This document shows, piece after piece, positions 1 to 6,159 of a stretch of 31,461 nt of DNA. Positions within the stretch are counted from its first letter, which is position 1, and each line of letters starts with the position of its first letter. The stretch covers positions 1-31,461 of IMG/VR virus record IMGVR_UViG_2778261696_000004, one strand, 5' to 3'. The position numbers were made by a program, and so were the translations under genes. The notes below the pieces were generated by a model. The model searched no databases. It had not been told where the DNA came from and saw nothing but the letters and a program-made list of their open reading frames with translations. This DNA is from a virus (lineage: Duplodnaviria; Heunggongvirae; Uroviricota; Caudoviricetes).

Positions 1-68
1 ATTGTAACATTATTTACCACCACCTTTCAATCTTTTTCAATAAATTATTGATTGCAACTTTTGAGTAA

Positions 69-932
69 AGATACTTACGGACTTTCTACACCCATATCTC
101 CGACCAGTACGCGCCCTTCAGTGCCAAGGTGGTCAACGTGGGCATTCGTGATTCAACTTACGTGCTTGATGGCCTGCTGTACCACGAGTCGGACTTGCGC
201 ATCGAGGAACACTACACCGACACGGCAGGCTTCACCGATCACGTGTTTGGCTTGATGCATTTGCTGGGATTTCGCTTCGCGCCGCGTATCCGTGACTTGG
301 GCGAAACCAAGCTATTCATCCCCAAGGGCGATGCCGCCTATGACGCGCTCAAGCCGATGATTAGCAGCGACAGGCTGAACATCAAGCAAATACGCGCCCA
401 TTGGGATGAAATTCTGCGGCTGGCCACCTCCATCAAGCAAGGCACGGTAACGGCTTCGCTGATGCTGCGCAAACTCGGCAGCTACCCGCGCCAGAACGGC
501 TTGGCCGTGGCGTTGCGCGAGCTGGGGCGCATCGAGCGCACGCTGTTCATTTTGGATTGGCTGCAAAGCGTGGAGCTGCGCCGCCGCGTCCATGCGGGGC
601 TGAATAAGGGCGAGGCGCGCAACGCGCTGGCCAGGGCGGTCTTCTTCTACCGATTGGGTGAAATCCGCGACCGCAGTTTTGAGCAGCAGCGCTACCGGGC
701 CAGCGGCCTCAATCTGGTGACGGCGGCCATCGTGTTGTGGAACACGGTATATCTGGAGCGTGCCACCAGTGCTTTGCGTGGCAACGGCACGGCGCTGGAC
801 GACACATTGTTGCAATATCTGTCGCCGCTGGGGTGGGAGCACATCAACCTGACCGGCGATTACCTATGGCGCAGCAGCGCCAAGGTCGGTGCGGGGAAGT
901 TTAGGCCATTGCGACCGCTGCCACCGGCTTAG
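69..932 (+). pseudogene. tnpA: Tn21/Tn3-family transposase TnpA, C-terminal fragment (5'-truncated; frame open from 69, stop TAG 930-932)
   Basis: Translation (…[35 protein letters not shown]…[17 protein letters not shown]) matches my recollection of the C-terminus of Tn21-subgroup TnpA. The stop lies inside the terminal IR, as in Tn3-family elements. The N-terminal ~700 aa are absent. Confidence 0.85.
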
Positions 933-965
933 CGTGCTTTATTTTCCGTTTTCTGAGACGACCCC
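928..965. mobile_element. 38-bp terminal inverted repeat of a Tn21-subgroup transposon (tnpA-proximal end)
   Basis: Sequence cttagcgtgctttattttccgttttctgagacgacccc is the reverse complement of the Tn21-type IR GGGGTCGTCTCAGAAAACGGAAAATAAAGCACGCTAAG as I recall it. It ends at 965, where P1-like sequence begins. Confidence 0.8.
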
Positions 966-1054
966 TACCTGTGTGCTATACTCCTTCTTGATTGATTGGA
1001 TGCGGAATACAAACCCGCTCTTTTGTGCAGCCTGGCTCCTTGCCAGGCTTTTTT

Positions 1055-1366
1055 TTATTTCATCATGGAAGCTGTTAACGCTTTGGACCTTGCTGAACTG
1101 ATTGAAAGAGCATTGTTTACCTTACCCAGGAGTTCGCCAAATTCCCCCATCACTCTAGCAAGCCCGCGCCGCGCTTCCTCCTCCGTTGCATTCATCACAA
1201 AATGTTCAGCACTCCGCATGCTTTTAACGGGGAACGCAACAGATATCGAGTCGATATCAGGCATCCTATCGCTCAACTTTACGGTGACAATGACAGATGG
1301 TGACTGAATTTGAGAGCTTACAGACAGCACCACATATTTTCCGTCTATTTTGAAATCCTTCCGCAT
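1055..1366 (-). CDS. hypothetical protein, 103 aa, downstream of cre
   Basis: ORF with ATG start and a GGTG Shine-Dalgarno-like motif upstream. A C1-operator-like 17-mer sits just upstream at 1383-1399. No recognisable domain. Confidence 0.4.
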   Translation of the reverse strand: MRKDFKIDGKYVVLSVSSQIQSPSVIVTVKLSDRMPDIDSISVAFPVKSMRSAEHFVMNATEEEARRGLARVMGEFGELLGKVNNALSISSARSKALTASMMK

Positions 1367-1382
1367 GTGTCACCATAAATAT

Positions 1383-1399
1383 CAAATAATTAGAGCAAT
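1383..1399 (-). promoter_or_regulatory. C1 repressor operator-like site (ATTGCTCTAATTATTTG, 14/17 to consensus)
   Basis: Matches the P1 C1 operator consensus ATTGCTCTAATAAATTT on the minus strand, between the cre stop and the downstream ORF. Confidence 0.6.
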
Positions 1400-1416
1400 C
1401 AAGCGCAAATGAACGG

Positions 1417-2448
1417 CTAATCGCCATCTTCCAGCAGGCGCACCATTGCCCCCGTTTCACTATCCAGGTTACGAATGTAGTTCATGACAATATTTACGTT
1501 GGTCCAGCCGCCAGCTTGCATGATCTCCGGTATAGAAACTCCGGCGCGGGCCATATCTCGCGCGGCACCGACACGGGCACTATGTCCAGACCAGGCCTGG
1601 TATCGCTGACCAGAGTCATCTTTTGCCCCGTAAATCAATCGGTGAGTTGCTTCAAAAATCCCTTCCAGGGCGCGAGTTGATAGCTGGCTGGTGGATGATG
1701 GCGCGGCAACACCATTTTTTCTGACGCGGCAAAACAGGTAGTTATTCGGATCATCAGCTACACCAGAGACAGAAATCCATCGCTCAACCAGTTTAGTTAC
1801 CCCCAGGCTAAGTGCCTTCTCTACACCAGCGGTGCTAACCAGCGTTTTCGTTCTGCCAATATGGATTAACATTCTCCCACCGTCAGTACGTGAGATATCT
1901 TTAACCCTGATCCTGGAAATTTCGGCTATACGTAACAGGGTGTTATAAGCAATCCCCAGAAATGCCAGATTACGTATATCCTGGCAGCGATCGCTATTTT
2001 CCATGAGTGAACGAACCTGGTCGAAATCAGTGCGTTCGAACGCCAGTGCCTGTTTTGCACGTTCACCGGCATCAACGTTTTCTTTTCGGATCCGTCGCAT
2101 GACCAGTGAAACAGCATTGCTGTCACTTGGTCGTGGCAGACCGGACCGACGATGAAGCATATTTAGCTGGCCCAAATGTTGCTGGATAGTTTTCACTGCC
2201 AGACCACGCGCCTGAAGATATAGAAGATAATCGCGAACATCTTCAGGTTCTGCGGGAAACCACTTCCGGTTATTCAACTTGCACCATGCCGCCCACGACC
2301 GGCAAACGGACAGAAGCATTTTCCAGGTATGCTCAGAAAACGCCTGGCGATCCCTGAACATGTCCATCAGGTTCTTGCGAACCTCATCACTCGTTGCATC
2401 GACCGGTAATGCAGGCAAATTTTGGTGTACGGTCAGTAAATTGGACAT
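1417..2448 (-). CDS. cre: Cre site-specific tyrosine recombinase
   Basis: 343-aa translation is near-identical to P1 Cre as recalled (MSNLLTVHQNLPALPV…GWTNVNIVMNYIRNLDSETGAMVRLLEDGD), with a few substitutions. A loxP site lies about 420 bp upstream. Confidence 0.97.
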   Translation of the reverse strand: MSNLLTVHQNLPALPVDATSDEVRKNLMDMFRDRQAFSEHTWKMLLSVCRSWAAWCKLNNRKWFPAEPEDVRDYLLYLQARGLAVKTIQQHLGQLNMLHRRSGLPRPSDSNAVSLVMRRIRKENVDAGERAKQALAFERTDFDQVRSLMENSDRCQDIRNLAFLGIAYNTLLRIAEISRIRVKDISRTDGGRMLIHIGRTKTLVSTAGVEKALSLGVTKLVERWISVSGVADDPNNYLFCRVRKNGVAAPSSTSQLSTRALEGIFEATHRLIYGAKDDSGQRYQAWSGHSARVGAARDMARAGVSIPEIMQAGGWTNVNIVMNYIRNLDSETGAMVRLLEDGD

Positions 2449-2455
2449 TTAACAC

Positions 2456-2677
2456 TCAGATAATGGTTTTAAGTAAAGTGTACAGGATCGGCTCTGCCTT
2501 TACCTGTTTATGGTTCTCGTCATAGAAACGCCAGCGACCGCGCGTGCGTCCTATTTTCTCTTCACCGCGCGATAATGACAGTTGGCAACTATCACGATCA
2601 AACCCTTTTGCCCGCCAGTAACCACGGTTTTTCTCAAGCTCAAGATGAGTGGACACTTTAGCAGCTGAATATCCCAT
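2456..2677 (-). CDS. hypothetical small protein (73 aa) immediately upstream of cre
   Basis: ATG preceded by GAGGTG Shine-Dalgarno about 5 nt upstream; stop is 5 nt before the cre ATG. No known domain, and it could overlap cre promoter elements. Confidence 0.35.
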   Translation of the reverse strand: MGYSAAKVSTHLELEKNRGYWRAKGFDRDSCQLSLSRGEEKIGRTRGRWRFYDENHKQVKAEPILYTLLKTII

Positions 2678-2773
2678 TTTTCACCTCTGATTGATTGGTG
2701 GTGCTAAGTGCGCTACGCGAAATCTGGAGCACAAACACTGCCAACATTTCGCAGATTTTACGTAGCGCAACCT

Positions 2774-2795
2774 TGATCAAATGATCAAGTGATCA
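2774..2795. promoter_or_regulatory. Three TGATCA hexamers (Dam GATC sites) spaced 8 bp in the cre upstream region
   Basis: cttGATCAaaTGATCAagTGATCAc seen directly. P1 cre promoters are reported to be Dam-methylation sensitive. Confidence 0.5.
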
Positions 2796-2866
2796 CTATT
2801 TGACCTGATAAGGTATTGAACTGTATGGATTTACAGGTAAATTGATCATGTTCAATAACCCTTAAG

Positions 2867-2900
2867 ATAACTTCGTATAATGTATGCTATACGAAATTAT
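2867..2900. other. loxP: loxP recombination site, single-base variant (ATAACTTCGTATA-ATGTATGC-TATACGAAATTAT)
   Basis: 13-bp arm, 8-bp spacer, 13-bp arm. The right arm has A at 2896 where canonical loxP has G (GAAGTTAT becomes GAAATTAT). Confidence 0.9.
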
Positions 2901-4485: not shown

Positions 4486-5601
4486 TTATTCAGCCGCCAC
4501 CGGTTTTAACAAGCCAGCATCGAGCAGTTTACGCGTCAACCACTGCTGGCCTTTACCCGTTAATTGAGGCGTCAACCGTATCTGGTAGCCATCTTCATCA
4601 TCCAGCACCACTTCTTTCACCGTGAAATACCCGGCGTTGATGTATTGCTGGAGCGGTACATTTTTACGCCCGCCGGACGCAATCAGGATGCCGTTCTCCC
4701 GTAACCAGGCAAACAGCGCGTTTTGCTTAAGTCCAACAACCTTTGCAAAATTCCCAATCAGGATCCCTTTAGCTACTGATACCCGGTCGGCAAAATCGAC
4801 TTTAGGAGCGGCGGCCACCAGCTGCTGATTTAGCTGGTGGGCTTTCTGTTCCAGAAGCTGCTTTTGTTCAGCCAGTTCGGCAGCCAGGCGCAGAGCTTCT
4901 GGAAGCGTCTGGGGGATTGCGATCGGTTGCTGTTCTTTTTGTCGGAAGTAGCTGTCTTCCAGTTTTTCAAAGAATGCCCATGCCTGATCGGTTTCGAGCA
5001 TTTTAGCGTGACGGGCAGCTCCTCGTTCTGTCCAGAGGATGAGAGAGCGCGCTTTGGGGGAGACTGGATTTTGTGAGTAGTTTAAAGCTACCCGCAAATT
5101 TTTCAGCTCATCGCCAATAACCTTGAAAAAGTGCTTCGCTTCAACAAAGCGTACTTTGTTCTCATGATGATTCTGGCGAATGCGAATCGCTTCTGTACCA
5201 TACCCCTTAGCAAGAGTTTCGGTTGTTACGACACGCACTCCCTGCCACTCCAGAACGGGAATTTCATCCGGCTGATTCTGAACAACCACCAGTTCCGATT
5301 CCTGAACTGAAGGTGCATAAATTTTTTCTGATTTAACGTTAGTTGCTTTCATTCTGTGTGCCTCCTTGCGTGCTTCGGCTGCGACGGTTGCGTAATTCAG
5401 ATGACCCTGTTCGAGCAGGTATTCACGGATATCGGTTAGCAGAATGCGGTGAACCGCGTGTTTGTCCTTTCTCCGGTAAAGTTGTTTGGTGATCATGAAG
5501 TAGTTGGCAATAACGCCAGGTATATCCCTGGTACTGATACAGGCAGTGTGCTGTTCAATTGCCTCGATCATCTCTTCACGGGTAACTAACGATGTTCTCA
5601 T
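4486..5601 (-). CDS. phage antirepressor (N-terminal Rha/ORF6N-like region, C-terminal KilAC/ANT domain), 371 aa
   Basis: C-terminal segment (AKGILIGNFAKVVGLKQNALFAWLRENGIL…PLQQYINAGYFTVKEVV…LTGKGQQWL) fits the KilA-C antirepressor pattern. Its start overlaps the stop of the upstream small ORF. Confidence 0.7.
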   Translation of the reverse strand: MRTSLVTREEMIEAIEQHTACISTRDIPGVIANYFMITKQLYRRKDKHAVHRILLTDIREYLLEQGHLNYATVAAEARKEAHRMKATNVKSEKIYAPSVQESELVVVQNQPDEIPVLEWQGVRVVTTETLAKGYGTEAIRIRQNHHENKVRFVEAKHFFKVIGDELKNLRVALNYSQNPVSPKARSLILWTERGAARHAKMLETDQAWAFFEKLEDSYFRQKEQQPIAIPQTLPEALRLAAELAEQKQLLEQKAHQLNQQLVAAAPKVDFADRVSVAKGILIGNFAKVVGLKQNALFAWLRENGILIASGGRKNVPLQQYINAGYFTVKEVVLDDEDGYQIRLTPQLTGKGQQWLTRKLLDAGLLKPVAAE

Positions 5602-5819
5602 AGTCCCTCCTGAGCAGAAGCGTTAACAGGGAGGCACCAGTAACTGAGAGAATTGCGTGAATCAGTGGAAAAACGGGCAGAGAAAATACATGGGGCGTCA
5701 GGAAGCTGAGAACGTGCCTCATCTTCTGTCGGTGCAATAACGAAGTGATAGTGACGTTTTTGGCAGGAGTAAAAGCGCCAGATAAATTCAGGATGAGCAG
5801 GGGTAGGGATAGTAGCCAC
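5598..5819 (-). CDS. small protein, Icd/Ash-like (putative cell-division-inhibitor family), 73 aa, GTG start
   Basis: TPAHPEFIWRF…EDEARSQL resembles Ash/Icd-like proteins as I recall them. AAGGAGG Shine-Dalgarno upstream; translationally coupled to the antirepressor, the same layout as icd-ant in P1 immI. Confidence 0.45.
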   Translation of the reverse strand: MATIPTPAHPEFIWRFYSCQKRHYHFVIAPTEDEARSQLPDAPCIFSARFSTDSRNSLSYWCLPVNASAQEGL

Positions 5820-6004
5820 AATGGCAGCCTCCTTTTGCTAATTTAAGGAGCTACCGCGTGAGGTCTCAATCTCAATGGCGGTAGCACTGACTGGGTTGAG
5901 ACTACCGGCGCAAAAGGGAACCGGCCTGCCTTTCGGCAGCCCAGCCAGCACTACCATTGATCTCCGAGCTAAACGCTACGTATGGCTGTGCGATGGCATG
6001 ACAC

Positions 6005-6028
6005 AAAAAAAAGACGCTTTTGGCGTCT
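6005..6028 (-). terminator. Rho-independent terminator (AGACGC-caaaa-GCGTCT followed by a run of 7-8 T) on the minus strand
   Basis: Perfect 6-bp stem and T-run seen directly. Lies about 140 nt downstream of the operator at 6160-6176 and upstream of the icd-like SD. Confidence 0.65.
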
Positions 6029-6159
6029 GTGTCGCCTTTTGCATTATCCGGGGTCTCAATCCCGGCACCCGTTTTAATGAGGTGCCTGATAAGCATAAAC
6101 CGAAAATGCCTCAAGGCGCAAGAGGTCAGGTTCAATGTAACATCGGCAGTTAAAAAACA
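6029..6159 (-). ncRNA. candidate small regulatory RNA (c4-like antisense RNA candidate)
   Basis: ORF-poor segment bounded by a C1 operator and an intrinsic terminator. Contains hairpin CCGGG-ATTGAGAC-CCCGG (6048-6065) whose loop is complementary to GTCTCAA in the icd-like leader (5893-5906). Confidence 0.4.

Follow-up and report, generated by a model that had tools for sequence, protein, structure and literature searches.

A Tn21-subgroup transposon remnant of probable Tn1696-type parentage at the cre-proximal edge of a P1-like phage-plasmid's resistance island

Introduction

In the Tn21 subgroup of Tn3-family transposons, the stop codon of the transposase gene tnpA usually lies inside the terminal inverted repeat (IR). 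The ARI-A island of IncC plasmids such as pECO-c85f and AB571791 has been described as a derivative of Tn1696 (reference U12338; PMC6591265, PMC6872532). A further fragment, named ΔTnAs2 by Yin et al. for 801 bp with 87% identity to TnAs2 upstream of mcr-3 (PMC5487729), is the same remnant as the one described here, and the module that contains it has been reported with a TACCT duplication as well as with TTTAC, GAGTT and ATGTA (PMC10232291). In pOLA52-type modules, the neighbourhood of the remnant's left-hand flank is reported to adjoin a truncated ISEnca1 (PMC5645526).

Here we analyse a 31,461-nucleotide stretch of a caudovirus record (IMGVR_UViG_2778261696_000004; hereafter, the window), the first 965 bases of which carry such a remnant next to the cre region of a P1-like backbone. 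In our reading, positions 77–965 are very probably a dead right-hand (tnp) terminus of Tn1696 type that was fused to a nimC/bleO flank, whose IR, still usable in trans, became joined to a TACCT pentamer of P1 and was then inherited via recombination.

Results

An intact inverted repeat and a truncated tnpA

Three features make up the left end of the window:

1–76 (no strand): AT-rich non-coding flank of a nimC/nimA-like PNPOx gene (bleO-nimC module), assigned by identity to relatives
78–932 (+): tnpA pseudogene, codons 707–990 plus TAG stop of a 990-aa Tn1696-type Tn3-family transposase, assigned by Pfam and alignment
928–965 (−): Tn21-subgroup terminal inverted repeat (IRtnp), intact, 38 bp, 38/38 match

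The repeat, GGGGTCGTCTCAGAAAACGGAAAATAAAGCACGCTAAG, is a 38-bp terminal IR of the GGGG...CTAAG type that matches without mismatch on the minus strand at 928–965, occurs once in the window and has an expected chance count of 0.00 (100 shuffles); sequence comparison identified the same 38 bp as IRtnp of Tn21 in R100. No insertion of IS4321 or IS5075 was found in 928–965, whereas in IncC relatives the identical IR is split by IS4321 past the position equivalent to 944. A second IR with three or fewer mismatches was not found anywhere in the window.

The tnpA frame reads toward this repeat and ends inside it, 78–929 encoding 284 residues and the TAG stop occupying 930–932, and the fragment retains the C-terminal two-thirds of the DDE_Tnp_Tn3 domain (PF01526; E = 1.2e-111; profile 130–389 of 389). 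Alignment to full-length genes places window position 77 at nucleotide 2,118 of a 2,973-nucleotide tnpA, which leaves 856 nucleotides of the gene and removes the 5′ 2,117 (71%); the terminal 889 bp (77–965) are all that survives of the transposon. The full-length tnpA, tnpR, res and second IR of a complete autonomous element are absent from the window, and a fragment lacking about 70% of TnpA together with tnpR and res would have no self-mobility. The equivalent of 78–932 in p1540-3 is called by PGAP as a pseudogene, 'Tn3 family transposase, incomplete, missing N-terminus'. A preliminary description of this DNA had proposed a 38-bp Tn21-type IR terminating at 965 and about 860 bp of 5′-truncated tnpA; both parts and the truncation are borne out by these measurements, while the cut that it set near 69 has to be moved to 76/77, homology beginning at 77.

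Parentage of the tnpA fragment

Over 868 comparable nucleotides (77–944), the fragment is 100% identical to tnpA of pECO-c85f and AB571791, compared with 86.6% nucleotide and 93.0% amino acid identity to Tn21 of R100 (the tnpA of which PGAP labels 'TnAs3 family'), about 85% identity with copies of ISPa38 type and 82.5% with those of TnAs1/Tn1721 type. In both fully matching sequences the backbone is IncC, intI1 is immediately next to tnpR and the IR contains an IS4321 insertion. The Tn1696 hallmarks of a class 1 integron in res, next to tnpR, and a mer module are visible solely in the full-length relatives, those parts having been deleted from the stub. The identities indicate that the parent is a Tn1696-type member of the Tn21 subgroup and not Tn21, an assignment that draws on Tn1696-derived islands and published statements rather than on an alignment to the prototype U12338. 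The original placement in the Tn21 subgroup therefore stands, and the comparison with Tn21, Tn1696 and Tn1721 that it called for narrows it to Tn1696 type; a failure of the IR and tnpA to match Tn21-family references, named at the time as evidence against it, is the opposite of what was found (38/38 and, to Tn1696-type copies, 100%).

Two other parents can be considered. If the fragment were the end of Tn21 itself, a mer operon and an In2-type integron would be contiguous just upstream. The IR is identical at 38/38 positions to that of Tn21, and some relatives have Tn21-type intI1 and tnpR about 13–17 kb leftward, but we regard this parentage as extremely improbable because tnpA shares only 86.6% of its nucleotides with R100 Tn21 as against 100% with Tn1696-type copies, and because the immediate upstream sequence is a nimC/bleO segment and not tnpA/tnpR/res. 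Tn21 sensu stricto was accordingly rejected on its nucleotide and amino acid distances to R100. Derivation from the Aeromonas transposon TnAs2, following the label in the mcr-3 papers, would give this part of the island an Aeromonas origin and agrees with the published 87% identity over 801 bp (PMC5487729); it too is very improbable, since IncC plasmids of enterobacteria have full-length copies with 100% identity in their Tn1696-derived islands, since TnAs2 at 87% is about as distant as Tn21, and since the closest Aeromonas plasmid hit, from Aeromonas salmonicida, is just 84.1% identical and spans only the fragment's first 224 bp. The name ΔTnAs2 thus appears to reflect an 87% best hit rather than the true parent, the comparison with TnAs2 being made through the published figure.

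The left junction is a fusion to a nimC/bleO flank

The window opens with 76 AT-rich bases and then switches abruptly to GC-rich coding sequence up to 932. These 76 bases are identical in pOLA52-type, IncR and IncHI2 loci, and all context left of position 1 is taken from relatives, in which the upstream gene encodes a 130-aa protein of the PNPOx family (Pfam), the 'nimC/nimA' of the literature. Where pOLA52, pRGT40-1-78k and pSH16G2457 read ...GATACTTA/TTAAACCCTGCAAG..., the window reads ...GATACTTA/CGGACTTTC... and runs into tnpA, so that the left segment ends at 76/77 with an ambiguity of 1 nucleotide. No insertion sequence terminus was found at the joint, beyond which other plasmids extend the nimC flank with a different sequence. 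Taken together, the junction sequences suggest that the 76/77 joint is an illegitimate fusion of the tnpA end to the nimC/bleO flank. The end of the nimC flank was also considered as the terminus of a mobile unit and rejected, BLAST hits stopping there merely because the query diverges.

Two expectations of the preliminary description bear on this junction. A second rearrangement, which it had read from the truncation, is seen directly as the 76/77 joint when the window is set against loci where the nimC flank continues otherwise. The mer or integron cargo that it had expected beyond the left edge does not border the stub: in every relative sharing the junction, the stub is adjoined by the nimC-like PNPOx gene with bleO and IS26 as neighbours, and integrons, aac(3)-IV/hph, oqxAB, blaNDM-1 and mcr-1 lie farther left as separate IS26-linked modules.

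The right junction lies in the c8-ref spacer of a P1-like backbone

To the right of the IR, the following features were recognized:

966–970 (no strand): TACCT, native P1-backbone pentamer abutting the IR, presumed target, present in the empty site of pEC18-3
966–1054 (no strand): rest of the P1 c8-ref intergenic region, by backbone homology
1029–1049 (+): terminator-like hairpin in the c8-ref spacer
1055–1366 (−): c8-like 'lysogeny establishment' ORF, intact, annotated c8 or lysogeny establishment protein in P1 and RCS47
1417–2448 (−): cre recombinase gene, 343-aa ORF, annotated cre or site-specific integrase in RCS47 and relatives
2867–2900 (+): loxP, sequence match with 1 mismatch, at 2896
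5874–5961, 6007–6085, 27540–27615 and 29047–29200 (−): standard P1 RNA genes (C4, isrK-like, three tRNAs), by Rfam and tRNA scans

Cre-loxP, c8, c1, C4 RNA, pac/terminase and phd-doc in P1 order identify the backbone as that of a P1-like phage-plasmid (Punavirus), and 966–31461 is collinear with pEC18-3. The RNA genes recovered by Rfam and tRNA scans (C4 antisense RNA, an isrK-like sRNA match, tRNA-Met, tRNA-Thr and tRNA-Asn) are standard P1 features. The IR meets the backbone at 965/966, homology from 966 onward being shared with P1, P7, RCS47 and hundreds of P1-like plasmids, in agreement with the earlier statement that the transposon end abuts cre-proximal backbone 90 bp from the ORF downstream of cre, here the c8-like ORF. 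A weak sigma-70-like site (9/12, with TG) at 953–982 (+) spans the joint antisense to c8, and the hairpin at 1029–1049 (+), which has a T-run, lies downstream of it; both are consensus matches.

Transposon-free pEC18-3 reads ...CACTTCAG TACCT GTGTGC... at this site, with one TACCT. Next to the IR, too, only a single TACCT was observed: no second TACCT beside a partner IR was found in the window or its relatives, and IRmer is absent from all P1-lineage loci examined. As only one end survives, the other boundary in the relatives is a Tn2 end and 579 bp of backbone are missing, the partner of the 5-bp target-site duplication that the preliminary description proposed to look for cannot be found.

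The stub bounds a variable island in a small P1-like lineage

Window 1–1400 is identical in six P1-like plasmids (p1540-3, pHNSD133T1, pAH25-2, pA163_p0, pE92-3 and NZ_CP119743). A search for the exact P1 junction recovered it from six PLSDB plasmids and, out of 5,426 complete E. coli genomes, from four. Cargo of the island varies among these plasmids, with a class 1 integron and aac(3)-IV/hph in p1540-3, blaNDM-1 in pHNSD133T1, an mcr-1 Tn6330 insertion in pE92-3 and oqxAB in pA163_p0, while both island boundaries are constant. The far boundary, in ref, consists of Tn2 IRL with 1,343 bp of Tn2 tnpA cut by IS26, and its ΔTn2-IS26-bleO junction is the same as that of pOLA52; between the two boundaries, 579 bp of backbone (RCS47 1918–2496) are missing. 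The stub marks where this variable, IS26-driven resistance island ends on the cre side.

Several further Tn3-family elements have landed independently in the ref-c8 region of P1-like plasmids, again with exact IR ends. In the pEC18-3 locus (L007), landing sites fall within about 700 bp (5457–6155), equivalent to the sequence just left of window position 966:

5457: Tn21 (p204A1-114K)
5575: Tn2
about 5655: Tn1721-type element in CP122701.1, within ref, with a 5–6 bp duplication
6065: Tn1721-type element in pTB402, 90 bp from the insertion point of the window
6155: the Tn1696-type stub

In the P1-like NZ_CP026938.2, 42777–43220 matches the IR portion and the P1 flank of the junction with about 320 bp in between and carries 'recombinase' annotations; another Tn21-family end may have arrived independently close to this position.

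The same module ends precisely at its IR in unrelated contexts

Window 1–965, including the 76/77 joint, recurs at 99.9–100% identity in many plasmids, each time ending exactly at the tip of the IR. Precise ends were found in at least five contexts, with these flanks:

P1 backbone: TACCT, window 966–970
IncHI2 backbone: TACCG, locus L002 8966–8970
Tn2 tnpA in p75PM2: TACCT, locus L021 5966–5970
IS26 interior in pHN8: TAACA
near IRt in p131681: TTTAT

The non-P1 plasmids among these have mcr-3-dgkA within or beside the nimC gene. In p75PM2 (NZ_CP064015.1; L021 1671–5965), the module is part of a 4,295-bp non-autonomous unit, IRmer-ΔmerR-IS26-dgkA-mcr-3.5-ΔnimC-ΔtnpA-IRtnp, which interrupts Tn2 tnpA with a TACCT duplication, as checked against uninterrupted Tn2. 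The ends of this unit are Tn21-type and Tn1696-type IRs, a fact masked by the literature label ΔTnAs2. That the module stops at the IR tip in five or more contexts, and in one of them has a 5-bp duplication, suggests that the stub can move with transposase supplied in trans, and the truncated module would thus be mobilized in trans whenever a partner IR is present.

The pentamers adjacent to IRtnp in P1 (TACCT), IncHI2 (TACCG) and Tn2 (TACCT) are more alike than independent insertions predict. This TACC(T/G) likeness may be due to chance, target bias or a microhomology effect.

Origin of the joint in P1

How the IR came to abut TACCT in P1 can be approached from direct observations, namely the identities of the parts, the positions of both junctions, the empty site, the other contexts and the p75PM2 duplication. 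A transposase-made joint is suggested in P1 by the exact end of the IR. On this basis, the tnpA end, fused to the nimC-like PNPOx/bleO flank by an illegitimate joint at 76/77, keeps an IR on which a Tn21-subgroup transposase produced from another locus in the cell can still act; such a transposase, acting in trans, would have made the IR-TACCT joint. This could have happened by either of two routes. A two-ended unit may have inserted intermolecularly and lost its partner end later, or IRtnp may have attacked the neighbouring backbone intramolecularly, removing the 579 bp of ref in the same step. The joint sits in the non-essential c8-ref spacer.

An alternative interpretation is that no transposase made the IR-TACCT joint, which would instead stem from a microhomology-mediated deletion or an illegitimate recombination event at TACC(T) in an older context with the IR already beside TACC(T), such as Tn2 tnpA in p75PM2 or the IncHI2 backbone. 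The flanking pentamers of the P1, Tn2 and IncHI2 contexts fit this idea, as does the Tn2 IRL fragment with which the P1-lineage island begins, which places Tn2 sequence nearby, and a single deletion would account for the 579 bp of missing backbone. We nevertheless consider it unlikely because it requires a deletion endpoint to have landed fortuitously no more than 5 bp from the tip of the IR, and because the other flanks are unrelated (TAACA and TTTAT here; TTTAC, GAGTT and ATGTA in PMC10232291), which argues that the IR end has been rejoined repeatedly by a terminus-specific process. One 5/5 coincidence among at least eight contexts is expected at about 3% under uniform composition, and more often if sites favour an initial T. 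Moreover, pOLA52 shares the ΔTn2(1343 bp)-IS26-bleO arrangement yet keeps more of the ISEnca1-side sequence, which makes a Tn2-embedded ancestor less parsimonious; a history of IS26 inversion followed by TACCT deletion from a Tn2-embedded unit is possible but, given pOLA52, less parsimonious. A transposase acting in trans on the surviving IR is the reading that we prefer.

It is also conceivable, though somewhat more doubtful still, that the stub is the live end of a non-autonomous Tn21-subgroup unit relocated by resident Tn21-, Tn1696- or Tn1721-type transposases with the transducing P1-like phage-plasmid as shuttle, or that the TACC(T/G) pattern reflects target bias or carry-over of flanking bases.

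A switch between two backbones in an interval overlapping loxP

Window 1–2895 has zero differences from the island-bearing lineage (p1540-3 and its relatives), and its identity to transposon-free pEC18-3 is complete from position 2809 to the right. The interval that holds the crossover, 2809–2895, overlaps loxP (2867–2900, +), and p1540-3 first departs from the window at 2896, the variant base of loxP. This switch of identity points to inheritance of the stub by recombination between two P1-like plasmids and not to a fresh transposition. The exchange was possibly made by Cre-lox; the pattern is compatible with Cre-lox or with homologous exchange.

Discussion

The stub is a real, already annotated and widely distributed remnant, and the scar that it forms is already known in public plasmids; no new biology is implied. 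Its value is for annotation and epidemiology, as a marker of the cre-proximal island boundary in a small lineage of P1-like phage-plasmids, members of which variously carry blaNDM-1, mcr-1, oqxAB, aac(3)-IV/hph or class 1 integrons. The ΔTnAs2 beside mcr-3 would likewise be better read as a Tn1696 tnpA end with an intact IR that is probably usable in trans, and such an IR would explain the 5-bp direct repeats around mcr-3 units.

Set against known systems, the locus matches the ΔTnAs2 module of mcr-3 plasmids, with which window 1–965 shares the same sequence, the 76/77 joint and the IR end; it differs in having no mcr-3-dgkA insertion in the visible part and in being flanked by P1 backbone. 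With the islands in the ref/IS1 variable region (RCS47, pHYEC7-type and the p1540-3 lineage) it shares a non-essential, often-hit site by cre-c8, at which IS26 reshuffles the content, whereas the lineage of the window is set apart from other P1 islands by the combination of its two boundaries, the IRL of Tn2 within ref and the IRtnp of Tn1696 at TACCT. Tn1696 and derivatives of it such as the ARI-A islands, carried by type 1 IncC plasmids, are alike in tnpA and the inner IR (100% to pECO-c85f and AB571791 over the last 868 comparable nucleotides), in IRtnp and in the stop codon inside the IR; unlike them, the stub has no tnpR, res, integron, mer or IRmer, and its IR is whole where that of ARI-A is interrupted by IS4321. 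Tn21 of R100 (NR1), which is flanked by 5-bp duplications (TATTA), has the same 38-bp IRtnp and a tnpA that ends within it, but that gene differs from the stub by 13.4% in nucleotides and 7% in amino acids, and the Tn1696-type parent, unlike Tn21, has its integron beside tnpR.
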